Virus record (IMG/VR): IMGVR_UViG_2681813004_000016 | Span: 1 to 9,734 of that record | DNA from: a virus | Taxonomy: Duplodnaviria; Heunggongvirae; Uroviricota; Caudoviricetes | DNA length: 9,734 nt | Strand: one strand, 5' to 3' | Shown: positions 1-7,220 of the stretch, one piece after another | How positions within the stretch are numbered: the first letter of the stretch is position 1 | Layout of the letters: each line of letters begins with the position of its first letter | The notes under the pieces: generated by a model | What the model was told of the DNA's origin: nothing | The model's input: only the letters and a program-made list of their open reading frames with translations | Database searches by the model: none | Made by a program: the position numbers and the translations under genes

Positions 1-613
<613 letters not shown>

Positions 614-810
614 GCAGAAACTCCGTAATGAAGATGAAAAGCGCTCATAACACATCTGTCGGCCAGAAGGCGCGCCTCTGAGTTATCCTACGGACATACC
701 GGGAACAGTGTAATTTCCCGGCAGGAGCGAAAAATTTGAAAGGCGCATCTTACTCTTTTCGCTTTCAAAAAAAGAGTGGTCTTCGCGTTAACACACCGCC
801 CTGAGATGAA

Positions 811-1284
811 TTAGTGATGTTTTGGCTGCACCGCAACATACATTTCGATATCCCAGTACCCATCTTCCGCGCCATTGTTCAAGTAAACCTCGAAGCAGGG
901 CTTTGGTAACATTTCATAAGCACTGTCCTGCAAGAGGCTATTAAAGAACTGATACCAGGGTTTAGCAAAATCATCACCGACTACACGAGCCACCGCCACC
1001 GCATACTGACCACCTAAAATTTCTGTCAGAATGACGCCCTCACTGTTGTCGGGGAGCGTAAAGTTATTCGGCACCGTCACGACGGTGTCGCAGCGTAATT
1101 TTTCGGCGGGTGTTTCATCTGGATTGTCGTAATAGACAGCAACCCACTCCTTCGGCACAATATTTTTGTTATCTACCCACATCATCAACTGCTCAAAGCC
1201 TTTCTTTACCGTCTGTTCCCACGGGCCAACAAGATGGAAACCTGCAACGGTACGTTTATCTTCCTGCTTAATCTCGTAGTTCAT
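811..1284 (-). CDS. sbmC: DNA gyrase inhibitor SbmC (GyrI)
   Basis: 157-aa [27 protein letters not shown]...YVAVQPKHH matches E. coli SbmC in length and sequence as recalled. ATG start with GGAGG RBS; synteny yeeA-sbmC-dacD as in E. coli K-12. Confidence 0.95.
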
Positions 1285-1300
1285 GACGCCTCCACTAACA

Positions 1301-1316
1301 CTGTTTTTATATACAG
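1301..1316. promoter_or_regulatory. LexA (SOS) box CTGT-N8-ACAG immediately upstream of sbmC
   Basis: Sequence caCTGTttttatatACAGta at 1299-1318 fits the LexA consensus TACTGTATATATATACAGTA. It lies about 17 nt upstream of the sbmC start codon. sbmC is a known SOS-inducible gene. Confidence 0.7.
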
Positions 1317-1402
1317 TATAGTTGCAATATTAAAACCACAAGGAATGAGTGTTGATTATGCGAGCAGACTCGCACTCCTGCCAGTCTGCTGCAAAAGAAA
1401 GG

Positions 1403-2569
1403 TCAGGCCTTATGGTGGAAATAATCACTCAGGCGGGAAAACATGCTGCCTTCCCCGACAGATTCCAGGGTAACCAGCGGCCAGTGCGCCACCTGTTTAT
1501 CACGGTCGTAAAGTTCAATTTCCCCTACCCGCTGATGGGCGCTAATTGGCGCGGTGAGTTCTTTACCATCAAGGGTATATTTGGCTTTGATATGTGGAAT
1601 TTCGGCTTTCGGTAGCACCATCCAGAACTCTTGTTCCGTTCCCAGAGCGATATTTTCTTTATCACCATACCAGATGCGTTCCGTACCGACCTTTTTCCCA
1701 CGGTGCAAAATTTGCACCGTAGTAAAGTTTTGTTGCCCCCAACGCAGTAATTTTCTTGCCTCTTCCTCACGACCTTTTGCACTGTCAGCACCCATTACCA
1801 CTGCAATGAGGCGACGCTGCCCGTCTACAGCCGAAGCAATGAGATTAAACCCAGCACCAGAAGTATGACCCGTTTTCAGGCCGTCAACATTCATGGTTTT
1901 ATCCCACAATAACCCGTTACGGTTTTGCTGGGTGATACCGTTCCAGGTGAGGCTTTTCTCACTGTACATATGATAAAACTCGGGCTCGCCGTGGATGATA
2001 GCGCGAGAAAGCACAGCTAAATCATAAGCCGAGCTATGCTGGCCAGGTGCATCCAGACCATGCACTGTTTCAAAATGCGTATCCTTGAGATGCAGCTTCT
2101 CGGCATAGTTGTTCATCATTTCAACAAACTGCCGTTGCCCACCGGCAATATAGTCAGCCAGTGCAACACAAGCGTCATTTCCGGAATCCACAATTAAACC
2201 ACGGCTTAAATCACGTACCGATACGCGATCGCCCTCTTTCAAAAACATCAGTGAAGAACCGACAAACACCGGATTATCTTTCGCCCACGCATCACGCCCC
2301 ACGGTGACAATATCGTCCGGCGTAATGCGATGACTATCGATAGCGCGATCCACGACATAGCCCGTCATCAGCTTTGTCAGGCTGGCGGGATTGCGCTGTT
2401 GATGCTCATTACCCGCGGTGAGAATCTGACCGGTAGTGTAATCCATCAATACCCAGGACCCGGCATGAATCTCTGGAGGTTGAGGTGAAAAAGGGATGTT
2501 TTCCGCCGCAAAACCAGACGATAAATTAAAAACGAACAAAGAAGCAGCAATAATAAGACGGCGTTTCAA
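1403..2569 (-). CDS. dacD: D-alanyl-D-alanine carboxypeptidase DacD (PBP6b)
   Basis: ORF translation ...RRLIIAASLFVFNLSSGFAAENIPFSPQPP... with SxxK (ASLTK), SGN and KTG motifs, ending DYFHHKA. Matches E. coli DacD. The ORF track starts at TTG 2573-2575 (390 aa); the second TTG at 2567-2569 has GAGG 6-7 nt upstream and gives the 388-aa length recalled for DacD, so I call 2569 as the start. Confidence 0.93.
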   Translation of the reverse strand: MKRRLIIAASLFVFNLSSGFAAENIPFSPQPPEIHAGSWVLMDYTTGQILTAGNEHQQRNPASLTKLMTGYVVDRAIDSHRITPDDIVTVGRDAWAKDNPVFVGSSLMFLKEGDRVSVRDLSRGLIVDSGNDACVALADYIAGGQRQFVEMMNNYAEKLHLKDTHFETVHGLDAPGQHSSAYDLAVLSRAIIHGEPEFYHMYSEKSLTWNGITQQNRNGLLWDKTMNVDGLKTGHTSGAGFNLIASAVDGQRRLIAVVMGADSAKGREEEARKLLRWGQQNFTTVQILHRGKKVGTERIWYGDKENIALGTEQEFWMVLPKAEIPHIKAKYTLDGKELTAPISAHQRVGEIELYDRDKQVAHWPLVTLESVGEGSMFSRLSDYFHHKA

Positions 2570-2777
2570 CAGCAAACCCTCAGGTGTTTCAAATAGCTGT
2601 TCTTTTTACGGAAATACTTATGAACTGGCTGGAATAAAGTGCAAGAAAATGTGACTACTATCTCATTTTTATCTGACATGAACTGTTGCCACTCGCTGCC
2701 AAATTGTCGCGCTAAAGCTGATTAGCACGGTGATATTTGATACTCTGGCAGACAGCAGAAATAACGGATTTAACCTA

Positions 2778-2840
2778 ATGATGAATGACGGTAAGCAACA
2801 ATCTACCTTTTTGTTTCACGATTACGCGCAACACCCCTGA
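2778..2840 (+). pseudogene. sbcB: Exonuclease I (sbcB) 5' remnant: first 16 native codons, then foreign sequence and stop
   Basis: ATG ATG AAT GAC GGT AAG CAA CAA TCT ACC TTT TTG TTT CAC GAT TAC translates MMNDGKQQSTFLFHDY, the SbcB N-terminus as recalled (native continues ETFGTHPALDRP...). Here it continues AQHP then TGA at 2838-2840. Divergent from dacD as in K-12. Homology breaks at about 2825/2826. Confidence 0.75.
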
Positions 2841-2912
2841 GAACCGCCATGAACAAGGGTTTCATGATTTGTGATTTTAGTTTGGTACGCAATTTGGTAC
2901 ACAACACAATTT

Positions 2913-3158
2913 TCACTTCAGCGGGTAGTCATCAAACTCACCATAACGAGCAGCGTTAATGATGATTGGTTGCGAAACAGGAACGTGAGAACCGTCTTCG
3001 TTCTCTACATAAACCTGAATCTGGTTTTCAGGATTTACCGGGTCAGTGTCAATTTTTCCGATATAAATTTTGCCATTGGCTACGGCTTTAAAAGAACGCG
3101 CCATAGTGAAGAGTTGCGAAGGCATGCTTACCACAACATTGGCTGTAATGTCTGTCAT
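2913..3158 (-). pseudogene. P22-type tailspike (gp9) N-terminal head-binding-domain fragment, truncated after about 70 codons
   Basis: [70 protein letters not shown] matches the P22 tailspike N-terminus as recalled ([74 protein letters not shown]...). It then diverges to [11 protein letters not shown] and stops. Lies downstream of ant on the same strand, as in P22. Confidence 0.7.
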
Positions 3159-3216
3159 TTAATTTGCTCCAGATACAAGGAATCGCCGCAGCATGGCTAC
3201 GGTGAATTTTGGGCAT

Positions 3217-3239
3217 AAAAAAACCCAGCCGAAGCTGGG
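3217..3239 (-). terminator. Rho-independent terminator downstream of ant
   Basis: Plus strand reads aaaaaaa-CCCAGC-cgaa-GCTGGG; on the minus strand this is a GC stem with a 4-nt loop followed by UUUUUUU, sitting 20 nt after the ant stop codon. Confidence 0.75.
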
Positions 3240-3258
3240 TCGTTGCGTTGGTTATCTG

Positions 3259-4173
3259 TCAGTAGTTATGTACTGAAGGAGGTAATTCTTTATTCTTAAG
3301 TCTCATCCATGCGGAAAGATTCGTTGGTCCGTCTGGCTCATTGATATCAACATCTCGTGTGTGGTTTATTAAAACGTCTCTCGCCATTCCAATAACATAC
3401 GAGAACTCATGACCGTAGTCGTAGCATCTGCAGGAATAGTTCGATTGAATTTGCTTTAGCGCCGGATACAGTTCGCGGAATAATGCCTGTGAGCGGTTGG
3501 CATAATCCCATAACCATACAAGACTGTCTGTTTCTTTTGCGGAAAGCCCGTTGAGCTTCTTCTCTTGTTTGCCGATTAACTCTCCTTCAAGCGGAACGCG
3601 AGCAGCAAGTGACAGAGCTTCGGTAAACTGCTCCTCGCTGATTTCTTTATATGAACACCCAAAATGAGATTTCAGTGACGACCACATGGTGATCATCGCC
3701 TTCGCCTGTTTTTCTTTTGGCAGAGACTGACCGCGACTCATGACGAGTTGTTTAATGGCTTCCTGCTGCTCTTTGGTTATTTTGCCCGGCAACGCCTTTT
3801 TAGCTTTCGGTGTATTTCCGTAAGACCCCGTTTTACGAATGGATGGCAAAACTTCAGCTGTCACCCATTTGCGGAATTTGTGCGGGACTGAACCTTTATT
3901 GACGGCATCACGGCAGCGCAGAACCAATGTATACATACCTGATTCGCTCACAATGCTTAAATTCTGCTCACCGCCAAGGGTGTAACTTAAAGTTACTCCC
4001 TTCTCATCGTCATCAAGTGCAGTAAGCGCCTTGCGTGAGTTAGTCAGAGTTAAAGCATCACAAACATCTTTTGCTACAAACCACGGCGCACCGCACTTGT
4101 TGATGACGCGGATTTCACTGTCGCCGAATTTGAAGATGGTGAAATCGTTTTGTGCCTTTGCTATACTTTTCAT
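3259..4173 (-). CDS. ant: Phage antirepressor Ant (Bro-N/KilA-N-like N-terminal domain)
   Basis: 304-aa ORF. N-terminus [30 protein letters not shown] is a typical Bro-N-type antirepressor motif. Sits immediately downstream of an Arc-like gene and opposite a divergent Mnt-like gene, the P22 immI arrangement. Confidence 0.85.
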
Positions 4174-4246
4174 GTCAATATTTCCCGATCAGATTTGTTG
4201 ATGTAGAAGCCTCGCCAGTTCCCGCTGTCGGGGCTTCGTTATTTTT
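4174..4246 (+). ncRNA. Predicted sar-like antisense RNA covering the ant RBS and start region
   Basis: Candidate plus-strand promoter inside the ant 5' codons: -35 GTGAAA 4139-4144, 17-nt spacer, -10 TATACT 4162-4167, putting the start at about 4174. Plus-strand hairpin GAAGCC(4206-4211)/GGCTTC(4232-4237) with inner CCCG/CGGG stem, followed by TTATTTTT (4239-4246). Predicted RNA is about 70 nt and antisense to the ant RBS, as described for P22 sar. Confidence 0.4.
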
Positions 4247-4406
4247 AGAGAGCATTCCGCATTTTCTCCCGGTACTTCAACCACCAAGCAAGTCCCTGAA
4301 CCAACACTGAGTTTTCTGACATCCCCTCTTCCTTAGCGATGCGTTTCACCTCCTCCTTAAAACGGTACGGATACCGAAGAGTTGTCTTCACTTCATTCTT
4401 TTCCAT
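4245..4406 (-). CDS. arc: Arc-like ribbon-helix-helix repressor (53 aa)
   Basis: Not in the ORF track (under 60 aa). Minus strand ATG 4404-4406 to TAA 4245-4247 translates MEKNEVKTTLRYPYRFKEEVKRIAKEEGMSENSVLVQGLAWWLKYREKMRNAL. Same size and RHH pattern as P22 Arc (recalled ...PQFNLRWPREVLDLVRKVAEENGRSVNSEIYQRVMESF...). AGGAG RBS 7 nt upstream; directly upstream of ant. Confidence 0.7.
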   Translation of the reverse strand: MEKNEVKTTLRYPYRFKEEVKRIAKEEGMSENSVLVQGLAWWLKYREKMRNAL

Positions 4407-4427
4407 TGATCACTCCTTTTTACGTAA

Positions 4428-4489
4428 TGGCATTATGCCTTGAAAGCAATATGCCATCATTGAATATAAATAGCAATATGCCATCATTG
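4428..4489. promoter_or_regulatory. immI operator/promoter region: 11-bp palindrome plus two perfect 18-bp direct repeats between divergent arc-like and mnt-like genes
   Basis: Palindrome GGCATtATGCC at 4429-4439. Direct repeats AGCAATATGCCATCATTG at 4445-4462 and 4472-4489, 27 bp apart. The 7-mer ATGCCAT (reverse complement ATGGCAT) occurs three times. A candidate plus-strand promoter overlaps them (-35 TTGAAA 4440-4445, -10 TATAAA 4465-4470). Confidence 0.45.
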
Positions 4490-4508
4490 TTTTTTTTGAG
4501 GTGATGTT

Positions 4509-4829
4509 ATGGCTGAAAAGCAGGTTAAAGATTACGAAAAGTTTGTTGTGCGTTTCCCTGACGGGATGAGGGACGCGATTGCGGAGAGAGCCAAACGAAA
4601 CGGGCGCTCTATGAACTCAGAGATTGTGCAGATACTGGAAGATGCCTTGAATGCAGAAAATACTCTTGGGGAAATAGCAGACAAAATCAACAGCGTCTCG
4701 GTTCCGCTAAATGTTGATGCGCTAGTTCAACTTCAAGCCCAGGTTATCGCCATGCAAAAAGAAATACAGGAAAAGTTCAGAGAGCAGAACGAAAAGTTGA
4801 GAGAACTACTAAATAAAAAACCCACCTGA
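4509..4829 (+). CDS. mnt: Mnt-like ribbon-helix-helix repressor with C-terminal coiled coil (106 aa)
   Basis: N-terminus MAEKQVKDYEKFVVRFPDGMRDAIAERAKRNGRSMNSEIVQILEDAL carries the Arc/Mnt signature NGRSMNSE; C-terminal half is heptad-rich. GAGGTGA RBS upstream of ATG 4509. Divergent from arc-ant. Confidence 0.7.
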   Translation: MAEKQVKDYEKFVVRFPDGMRDAIAERAKRNGRSMNSEIVQILEDALNAENTLGEIADKINSVSVPLNVDALVQLQAQVIAMQKEIQEKFREQNEKLRELLNKKPT

Positions 4830-4836
4830 CGGTGGG
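4811..4836 (-). terminator. Rho-independent terminator downstream of tail gene L (overlaps the 3' end of the mnt-like gene)
   Basis: Plus strand aaataaaaaa-CCCACC-tgac-GGTGGG; on the minus strand the stem is followed by UUUUUUAUUU, 10 nt after the L stop codon (4846-4848). The mnt-like stop TGA (4827-4829) lies in the hairpin loop. Confidence 0.6.
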
Positions 4837-4845
4837 CATAATCCA

Positions 4846-5544
4846 TTACTGCGAAAGTTTGTTAATGGAAAGGAAGCCGCCAAAGTTGCCGACGTTATTG
4901 CGAAACTTACAGCCACTCAGGCATTTGCTGCATTTATCCTTCGTGATATCGGACGTTGGCTGGTCATATTCATCCGCGACAGCCGGACCGTGATAACCGC
5001 ACTCATCGCCGCGATAGGTCCAGGTGCAGGTGTTGGCCAGCATGATACGTCCCGGAAAAACAGCGCCATCTGTTTCCGTCGGCGTGGACAGTACAAAGGA
5101 GGCACTCACCGCGCTCAGTTCGCTGCACTGCTCGATGCGCCAGCGGCTGATCACCTCCTGCTCCGGATCGGCGTCACTGTTTCCGTTAACGAAGTTCACC
5201 GCATCCAGAAAACGGGCGTAAACCTTACGCCGGACCACCGTTCCGCCGACCAGACTCTGCATATCTTCCACCATACCGGTGACCATGCCGTGCAGGTTAG
5301 AAACCGTCAGTGTCGGACGGGCAGCACTGCCCTTGCCGTTCAGTTCAAATCCCGTCCCCTGAATGGGATACGCCTGATACTGTCGCCCCTGCCAGGTGAC
5401 CGGCTCACCTTTTTCGTTCTGCTCATTACAGAAAAAATAACGTTCTCCACCGACCTCTGTCAGGTCGATTTCCCAGAGCACCACGCTGGCAGACTGCTCC
5501 GCACGGGTGCATTCATTCAGTGTTTCCTGCCGGATATCCTGCAT
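4846..5544 (-). CDS. L: Lambda-type minor tail protein L
   Basis: 232-aa ORF MQDIRQETLNECTRAEQSASVVLWEIDLTEVGGERYFFCNEQNEKGEPVTWQGRQYQ...FGGFLSINKLSQ matches phage lambda gpL in sequence and length as recalled. Its start overlaps the M stop (ATGA). Confidence 0.95.
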   Translation of the reverse strand: MQDIRQETLNECTRAEQSASVVLWEIDLTEVGGERYFFCNEQNEKGEPVTWQGRQYQAYPIQGTGFELNGKGSAARPTLTVSNLHGMVTGMVEDMQSLVGGTVVRRKVYARFLDAVNFVNGNSDADPEQEVISRWRIEQCSELSAVSASFVLSTPTETDGAVFPGRIMLANTCTWTYRGDECGYHGPAVADEYDQPTSDITKDKCSKCLSGCKFRNNVGNFGGFLSINKLSQ

Positions 5545-5873
5545 CAGTTCACCACCTGTTTAAACTCTGCGCTGAACTCAACACGCAACATACTGACCTG
5601 CGACGACCATTTTGCGCAGGTCACCTTTATCTGCCTGTAACCATAAGGCGGCGTCCACAGAAAGGCCTTCCAGCCCCCGTGCTCAGCCAGAAACGACTCC
5701 AGCGCCGTGGCCTCCTCACGGGAGACAGACAGCGTCACGCTGTACGTTTTCAGGTCAGCGTTCAGCCCGGCAGGCGCACGCTGGGAATAGCCATCACCAA
5801 AGCGCACCTCCCTGACGGAAGGGGCCGATGTCACATCCATACCGGGTTTCACTTTCCAGCGGAAGGTTTTCAT
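5544..5873 (-). CDS. M: Lambda-type minor tail protein M
   Basis: 109-aa ORF MKTFRWKVKPGMDV...WTPPYGYRQIKVTCAKWSSQVSMLRVEFSAEFKQVVN matches lambda gpM as recalled; H-M-L order and overlaps as in lambda. Confidence 0.95.
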   Translation of the reverse strand: MKTFRWKVKPGMDVTSAPSVREVRFGDGYSQRAPAGLNADLKTYSVTLSVSREEATALESFLAEHGGWKAFLWTPPYGYRQIKVTCAKWSSQVSMLRVEFSAEFKQVVN

Positions 5874-6247
5874 CGTCCACCTCCGGAGAACAGGCCACCA
5901 TCACGCATCTGTGTCTGAATTTCATCACGGGCACCCTTGCGGGCCATGTCATACACCGCCTTCAGAGCAGCCGGACCTATCTGCCCGTTCGTGCCGTCGT
6001 TGTTAATCACCACATGGTTATTCTGCTCAAACGTCCCGGACGCCTGCGACCGGCTGTCTGCCATGCTGCCCGGTGTACCGACATAACCGCCGGTGGCATA
6101 GCCGCGCATCAGCCGGTAAAGATTCCCCACGCCAATCCGGCTGGTTGCCTCCTTCGTGAAGACAAACTCACCACGGTGAACAATCCCCGCTGGCTCATAT
6201 TTGCCGCCGGTTCCCGTAAATCCTCCGGTTGCAAAATGGAATTTCGC
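5870..6247 (-). pseudogene. H: Tape-measure protein H, C-terminal fragment (about 125 codons), 5'-truncated at the IS903 junction
   Basis: C-terminal translation ...GGFTGTGGKYEPAGIVHRGEFVFTKEATSRIGVGNLYRLMRGYATGGYVGTPG...MRDGGLFSGGGR matches the lambda gpH C-terminus as recalled. Upstream of about 6247 the frame reads IS903-derived sequence, so the first about 35 residues of the 160-aa track ORF are not H. Confidence 0.85.
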
Positions 6248-6779
6248 CGCAGACAACTTCATGTGTGTTGCTGTCAACAGCAAGATGCAACTTTCGCCAG
6301 ATACGACGGCGCTCTTTGCCGTGCTTTCTGACTTTCCATTCGCCTTCACCAAAGACCTTCAGCCCGGTGGAATCAATCACCAGGTGTGCGATTTCACCCC
6401 GGGTGGACGTTTTGAAACTGACATTAACCGACTTTGCCCGCTTACTGACACTGGTGTAATCCGGGCAGCGCAACGGAACGTTCATCAGGGCAAAAATGGA
6501 ATCAATAAAACCCTGCGCAGCCCGCAGGGTCAGCCGGAATACGCGTTTAATCACCAGAACGGTGGTGATGGCGAGATCAGAATAGCGCTGGGGCCTTCCT
6601 CGTGATGAAGGCGTTGCCGACTCATACCAGGCCTGAATCGCCTCATCATCCAGCCAGAAAGTGAGGGAGCCACGGTTGATGAGAGCTTTGTTGTAGGTGG
6701 ACCAGTTGGTGATTCTGAACTTTTGCTTTGCCACGGAATGGTCTGTGTTGTCGGGAGGATGCGTGATCTGATCCTTCAA
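6248..6779 (-). pseudogene. IS903-family transposase, N-terminal about 177 codons, 3'-truncated (track ORF 6195-6779 reads on into H-derived DNA)
   Basis: Transposase similarity runs from the TTG start at 6777-6779 to ...LAVDSNTHEVVC. The last 17 residues of the track ORF (GEIPFCNRRIYGNRRQI) are out-of-frame readthrough of tape-measure DNA. Confidence 0.85.
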
Positions 6780-6811
6780 CTCAGCAAAAGTTCGATTTAT
6801 TCAACAAAGCC
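6248..6811 (-). mobile_element. Truncated IS903-family insertion sequence (IS5 family): left inverted repeat plus 5' part of the transposase gene only
   Basis: Plus-strand 6793-6811 cgatttattcaacaaagcc is the reverse complement of the IS903 terminal inverted repeat GGCTTTGTTGAATAAATCG as recalled. The adjacent ORF encodes ...KQKFRITNWSTYNKALINRGSLTFWLDDEAIQAWYESATPSSRGRPQRYSDLAITTV..., the IS903/IS102 transposase N-terminus. Homology ends at about 6248, where lambda H sequence begins, so only about 564 bp of a roughly 1 kb IS remain. Confidence 0.9.
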
Positions 6812-7220
6812 CCTTAGAGCTAATTTCAGAACCACCAACACCCTCAATATAGTTTGATCTCCATGGTGACTCTTCGTGTGTCATGTTCCTCAGTTTCCAG
6901 GCAGAAAATTGCCCAAAAACATCCCAGACTTCTTCTAATAACTCTAACTGTTCTTCGCTGAATTTTTCAGCATCAAAAGACTCTGGAGAAGGGATAGCGC
7001 CATTACCATATTGTTTATAACGGCGATAAAGCTCAGGGACAACAGGGCCATGCATCCAAGCTTCCATCTTATTCTGAAAAAGAGGCTCGCCAAGCAACGC
7101 CAATGAAAAACCCTGAGCATAGTAAACAAGCTTTTGTAATTTTAAATTAGAGATTGTGTCACCGCTATCCTCGTCACACCGCGACAGGAAGTAGTCGGCG
7201 ACATCAAAACAAGTAAGCAT
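6801..7220 (-). CDS. Panacea / SocA-like (DUF4065) antitoxin-domain protein, 3' end clipped by the IS903 insertion
   Basis: MLTCFDVADYFLSRCDEDSGDTISNLKLQKLVYYAQGFSLALLGEPLFQNKMEAWMHGPVVPELYRRYKQYG... fits the SocA/Panacea pattern (hLKLQKLLYhAQGh...GEPLh...hEAWhHGPVhP.LY). Likely start is ATG 7218-7220 (GGAGG 7 nt upstream); the track used GTG at 7226. The last two codons and the stop (6801-6809) are IS903 sequence, so the native C-terminus is lost. Confidence 0.6.
   Translation of the reverse strand: MLTCFDVADYFLSRCDEDSGDTISNLKLQKLVYYAQGFSLALLGEPLFQNKMEAWMHGPVVPELYRRYKQYGNGAIPSPESFDAEKFSEEQLELLEEVWDVFGQFSAWKLRNMTHEESPWRSNYIEGVGGSEISSKGLC

Follow-up and report, generated by a model that had tools for sequence, protein, structure and literature searches.

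Complete elements of the IS903 group (IS5 family) are about 1057 bp long and carry two 18-bp inverted repeats, and truncated IS903 copies are common beside resistance genes. When the IS903 transposase makes deletions next to the element, these start from an end of the IS, which itself stays complete. A functional lambdoid tail module has V, G/T, H, M, L, K, I and J together, and its tape-measure protein gpH has about 850 residues and the lambda C-terminal domain. In lambdoid prophages an ant-arc-mnt moron is found between K and L. As regards the uptake of foreign DNA, integration of a circle by a single crossover is far commoner in E. coli than one-sided illegitimate integration, the frequency of which is 3e-10 per recipient (PMC3240628).

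Here we describe a locus at dacD of E. coli where an IS903-group fragment, the end of a lambda-type tape-measure gene and a P22-like prophage remnant have been brought together. The region is an inert rearrangement scar, of which the anatomy, the exact joint and the loss of function could be shown.

Anatomy of the scar and its joint

The window, i.e. the whole stretch of DNA that was analysed, is the entire 9734-bp draft contig AOTC01000257.1 (assembly GCA_001447405.1), reversed, and derives from the E. coli chromosome. Its left side carries yeeA, sbmC (811-1284) and dacD (1403-2575), which match E. coli at 97-99%. On the right, dacD is followed by the remnant of a P22-like prophage with a tailspike stub, an antirepressor gene, a Panacea-domain gene and a gp16 fragment, followed by NleG and tail-fibre C-terminal genes (Table 1). 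The tailspike fragment is the left edge of the remnant and adjoins dacD; NleG and the tail-fibre genes are, in the closest relative, part of an adjoining lambdoid prophage. A literature search on the assembly found nothing relevant.

Table 1. Features of the window; positions are those of the window, and the strand is given where assigned.
Feature	Position	Strand	Remarks
P22-like tailspike, N-terminal head-binding fragment	2913-3158	-	PF09008 Head_binding; partial tailspike in the annotation of relative L001
immI-like moron	3218-4845		Pfam Bro-N, P22_AR_C, Arc
ant (antirepressor)	3259-4173	-	within the moron
arc-like gene	4245-4406	-	within the moron
mnt-like Arc-family gene	4509-4829	+	within the moron
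Minor tail protein L, intact, 232 aa	4846-5544	-	TIGR01600, 330 bits (cut-off 70.75); PF05100, full length
Minor tail protein M, intact, 109 aa	5544-5873	-	PF05939, model positions 1-108 of 108
Tape-measure gene H, 3' stub (H')	5870-6252	-	last 126 codons and stop; no native start
Truncated transposase ORF	6195-6779	-	residues 1-162 of the canonical 307, then 17 out-of-frame residues from H DNA and a stop
Junction, 3-bp microhomology CAG	6250-6252		common to the H and IS parents; from a three-way alignment in which the window was compared with H of two prophages and with the complete IS
IS903-group (IS5 family) right-hand fragment, 562 bp (53%)	6250-6811	-	562/562 identical to nt 496-1057 of the 1057-bp element in L004/L005
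Panacea-domain (SocA-like antitoxin) gene	6801-7220	-	PF13274; P22-like remnant
gp16 fragment	7925-8278		P22-like remnant
NleG (type III effector)	8386-9033		followed by tail-fibre C-terminal genes

About 100 bp separate the C-terminal fragment of the P22 gp16-type DNA-transfer gene from NleG, with the lambdoid tail-fibre C-terminal genes further out. This is a second prophage/prophage junction, and the relatives have it too.

At the other end of the window, positions 1-60 fall outside every yeeA-region alignment of longer queries, the leftmost aligned base being 61. Searched alone, positions 1-75 matched in 2,233 E. coli genomes, where the number of places per genome had a median of 5 and reached 27, and among the matches listed the match lay under a FUSC family (yeeA) annotation in 8 of 8 records. 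Positions 1-60 look like a small dispersed repeat or MITE carried by some yeeA alleles, which probably explains why the contig ends there. A search of the whole window against Rfam at gathering thresholds found nothing.

The joint connects IS nt 496 to approximately codon 727 of the tape-measure gene. The original prediction, that homology to IS903 and to lambda H meet at about 6248 and that neither element is intact, was correct: the lambda side extends to 6252 and the IS side begins at 6250, an overlap of 3 bp, and alignment revealed neither a full-length IS nor a full-length H across the region. The overlap is at the same time the microhomology for which a search had been proposed. At least 3 bp of microhomology is expected at about 5% of random joins (p about 0.05), and the three bases are weakly non-random.

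To delimit the complete 1057-bp IS, two E. coli chromosomal copies (L004 and L005) were compared. The outer end of the IS is intact in the window, with a terminal repeat of 18-19 bp (CGATTTATTCAACAAAGCC) at 6793-6811, a sequence that we take to be the same as the IS903 repeat, and homology to the empty site of relatives restarts exactly at 6812. On the left, 495 bp are missing together with the terminal repeat of that side, and no second IS end or other IS piece was found anywhere in the window. What is left is a fragment of a member of the group and not an element. As regards the 9-bp target-site duplication of the group, the 9 bp to the right of the IS (6812-6820, CCTTAGAGC) have no copy at the truncated side (6241-6249, ATTTCGCCG), where the IS has lost its left end together with the flank.

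The fragment had been described as half an IS903, which is right as to its extent, the right-hand 53%, but not quite as to its name. Its identity is 100% to an E. coli element for which PGAP gives no more than 'IS5 family transposase', 93.5% to a copy under the PGAP label IS903 family (90.4% when the whole reference element is compared), and 89.7% to IS903B. Near-identity to IS903 sensu stricto is thus lacking, and on these identities the element is best called an IS903-group isoform.

The transposase frame has a normal start, is identical to the reference through residue 162, and stops at 6195. With 162 of 307 residues present it matches NF033579 over model positions 1-155 of 289 (200 bits, cut-off 140), PF01609 over positions 4-51 of 200 only, and also PF13737. 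The DDE triad is reduced to D121, with D193 and E259 lost. With D121 alone kept and the left terminal repeat gone, the fragment is unable to produce transposase or to be moved as a two-ended unit. More remotely, there might be expression from what has been retained, the IS promoter and the DNA-binding N-terminal half of the transposase, and these might then dampen the transposition of sister IS copies or drive the orphan genes M and L.

On the minus strand the order is the 5' half of the transposase gene, the 3' end of H, M and L. All four are read in the same direction, which makes a low level of read-through into M and L conceivable. Scans for promoter and terminator consensus sequences, however, gave background level only.

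The minus strand of 4846-6252 aligns without gaps to lambda (NC_001416) nt 14127-12721 over 1407 bp with 95.7% identity. L is identical to lambda L at 223 of 232 residues (668/699 nt) and M to lambda M at 97 of 109 (301/330 nt), and gene order and overlaps are those of lambda. Both genes match their families over the full length, and are as intact as had been predicted. H' is identical to lambda H (nt 12721-13103) at each of its 383 nucleotides and 126 residues, and covers TIGR01541 positions 248-332 of 332. In place of a full-length gpH there are only the last 126 residues, and these 126 of 853 codons correspond to 15% of H rather than to its last quarter. The change in similarity to lambda is sharp at the H/M overlap, with 383/383 identical bases in H' versus 91% in M and 95.6% in L.

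The ORF called at 5870-6349 (159 aa), which includes H', starts within IS DNA; it is an IS/H chimera and not a gene.

None of V, G, T, K, I and J was found beside L and M in the window, as predicted, so that H', M and L are all that is present of a lambdoid tail module; beyond L come the moron, the tailspike stub and dacD. M and L appear to survive as passengers only. The tail module had been called non-functional. This holds for the contig and is limited to it, since at its right end there are tail-fibre and NleG genes that in the closest relative are part of an adjoining lambdoid prophage.

A lambdoid block within a P22-like remnant

In the close relative L001 (CP148445) the dacD locus can be aligned with window positions 61-3592 and 6812-9732 and lacks both the IS and L-M-H'. 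Their place is taken by a LexA-family gene and a small hypothetical gene, which lie downstream of a Panacea gene (8296-8715) that is not interrupted. Compared with this gene, the Panacea gene of the window has lost its last 11 codons and ends instead in 3 codons and a stop supplied by the IS terminal repeat. Judged by this comparison, the IS insertion site is the 3' end of the Panacea gene of the remnant, and not the tail operon.

A hypothetical gene of 139 aa lies directly downstream of the Panacea gene in L001. It is a candidate toxin partner and is missing from the window; loss of such a toxin gene would leave an orphan antitoxin.

Window positions 3218-6250 are collinear with lambdoid prophages that carry the moron between K and L, and the moron is 99.1% identical to the K/ant/arc/mnt/L region of a prophage of E. 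coli PK8241. Positions 3218-3592 are common to both phage types, the P22-like type at the dacD locus and the lambdoid type. At 3242 and 3245 the window agrees with L001, where both lambdoid references differ; at 3541, 3577 and 3583 it agrees with the lambdoid type (L003), where L001 differs, and homology to L001 ends past 3592. The pattern of SNPs and the end of the L001 homology put the switch from the P22-remnant type to the lambdoid type within the 3' third of ant, at about 3246-3540, an interval that depends on very few discriminating SNPs (two on the left, three on the right) and on two or three reference genomes.

The alignments thus identify the block at 3218-6252 (about 3 kb, with ant-arc-mnt, L, M and H') as a lambdoid insert in the P22-like remnant, and they indicate that its left boundary is homologous, in shared antirepressor sequence, and its right boundary illegitimate. 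The original prediction had treated L-M-H' as a tail module that decayed in place, and in this it has to be revised: it is a 3-kb lambdoid piece embedded in a P22-like remnant at dacD.

About 10 substitutions are clustered at 3454-3557 in ant and are unlike the dacD-locus and the lambdoid-moron references alike. The cluster points to a patch of a third allele in the interval of recombination.

Two features of the moron are also mentioned. Perfect direct repeats of 18 bp (AGCAATATGCCATCATTG) are present at 4445-4462 and 4472-4489, spaced by 27 bp, in the divergent intergenic region of the arc-like and mnt-like genes, and are candidate operator sites of the immI-like moron. Similar terminator-like hairpins, AAAAAACCCAGCCGAAGCTGGG (3218-3239) and AAAAAACCCACCTGACGGTGGG (4815-4836), are found at the two edges of the moron, exactly where the lambdoid homology to K-side and L-side sequence starts and ends.

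Possible origins of the scar

The history that we favour, and hold to be rather probable, comprises a homologous recombination in ant and, after it, a single deletion that was mediated by microhomology and independent of transposase. In a first step an IS903-group element would have entered the Panacea gene. A lambdoid phage or prophage with the ant-arc-mnt moron between K and L would then have recombined with ant of the remnant, in the simplest form by a RecA-type single crossover of the circular phage genome, which would have placed ...H-M-L-mnt-arc-ant beside the tailspike stub and dacD. Finally, a single transposase-independent deletion from inside H to inside the IS would have removed the remaining phage, the remnant's own arc/repressor genes, the gene that follows the Panacea gene in L001, and the left 495 bp of the IS. 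We infer the order and the number of these steps, because an intermediate (the site with a full IS, or ant and the IS with a complete prophage between them) was absent from every genome collection searched.

The original prediction had both elements cut by a later deletion. A single join does truncate both, and a deletion is plausible as its cause, but the same product, with one homologous and one microhomology boundary, would also result from a patch made in one step, and sequence alone does not separate the two routes. In the one-step case no whole phage would have been integrated here. The event would be homology-facilitated illegitimate recombination (HFIR) or ectopic gene conversion. The lambdoid donor, linear or ectopic and perhaps a prophage of the same genome, would have been anchored by homology in ant and joined illegitimately at CAG inside the IS, and about 2-3 kb of the remnant would have been replaced. 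The sizes of what was replaced and what was inserted are indeed similar (about 2.2 kb as in L001 plus 0.5 kb of IS, versus 3 kb). The tail-fibre and NleG genes at the right end of the contig, which belong to a lambdoid prophage in the closest relative, point to potential donors in the genome, and HFIR has been demonstrated in E. coli (PMC3240628). On the other hand, its frequency in E. coli is very low, being that of the one-sided events mentioned above, and the adjoining lambdoid prophage of the closest relative is without the ant moron and was rejected as the obvious donor. We regard a patch in one step as possible, but clearly less probable than integration followed by deletion, which is favoured because single-crossover integration is much more frequent than HFIR (PMC3240628).

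The more specific reading of the locus as a natural HFIR footprint between E. coli prophages, with a lambdoid tail-gene block swapped into a P22-like remnant in one event, is somewhat more doubtful still. As in HFIR, one boundary falls within ant sequence that is shared over about 300 bp, and a 3-bp microhomology marks the other; however, integration and subsequent deletion also produce this footprint, and HFIR is rare in E. coli (PMC3240628).

The joint was also considered as an artefact, i.e. a chimeric read or a mis-join that is absent from the cell. In favour of this, the 9.7-kb window makes up one entire contig in a draft assembly, both partners belong to sequence families that are repeated in E. 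coli, and no second instance of the joint turned up in the genomes, metagenomes and viral contigs searched. Among 5,426 complete E. coli genomes none had either IS junction or a whole IS at the Panacea site. Exact scans with a 30-mer and a 22-mer across the IS/H' joint found no match in species-representative genomes or metagenome contigs, nor did the 22-mer in viral contigs. The two ORFs that cross the IS boundaries occurred, as called, only on the source contig AOTC01000257.1 among the indexed assemblies, and four start variants of the two chimeric ORFs had no exact-protein match in the collection. However, mis-joins in an assembly graph need an overlap of k-mer length, and here it is 3 bp; repeat mis-joins normally occur at repeat boundaries and not at IS nt 496; and both flanks are coherent with real loci, the contig extending 3.4 kb and 3.5 kb past the joint. 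An artefact is therefore improbable.

An event made by the transposase, either aberrant transposition via a cryptic internal end or an IS-mediated adjacent deletion, is least credible of all, since, although IS903-group elements are known for adjacent deletions, the break lies 495 bp inside the IS, its sequence (CAGACAACTTCATGTG) is unlike the terminal repeat (GGCTTTGTTGAATAAATCG), the fragment is not surrounded by a 9-bp duplication and the truncated transposase is without D193 and E259; a break so far inside the element, with nothing like an IS end at it, effectively refutes this reading.

Comparison with known systems

For annotation, the IS fragment should be marked as partial, L and M as orphans, and the ORF at 5870-6349 as not a gene. 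The locus may also serve as a worked example of two well documented processes, the exchange of blocks between resident prophage remnants through moron or antirepressor sequence that they share, and their later trimming by deletions at microhomologies.

Compared with phage lambda, H-M-L is collinear without gaps over nt 12721-14127, H' is the same at each base, and M and L are full length; in contrast to lambda, 85% of H and all other tail genes are missing. L borders the ant-arc-mnt moron here and not K as in lambda, in line with many E. coli lambdoid prophages. With IS903 and its group (IS5 family) the fragment shares the terminal repeat, the match to the 1057-bp reference, and a transposase N-terminal half that scores above the NF033579 cut-off, but with 562 bp and one end it is not a mobile unit.

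The scar is an ordinary, strain-specific product of routine prophage and IS decay, made of known parts by known processes. It shares with the cryptic prophages of E. coli the mosaic of two phages formed via shared homology, the IS insertion, the large deletions and the orphaned genes. It differs from them in nothing of kind, and this joint alone is specific to the strain.
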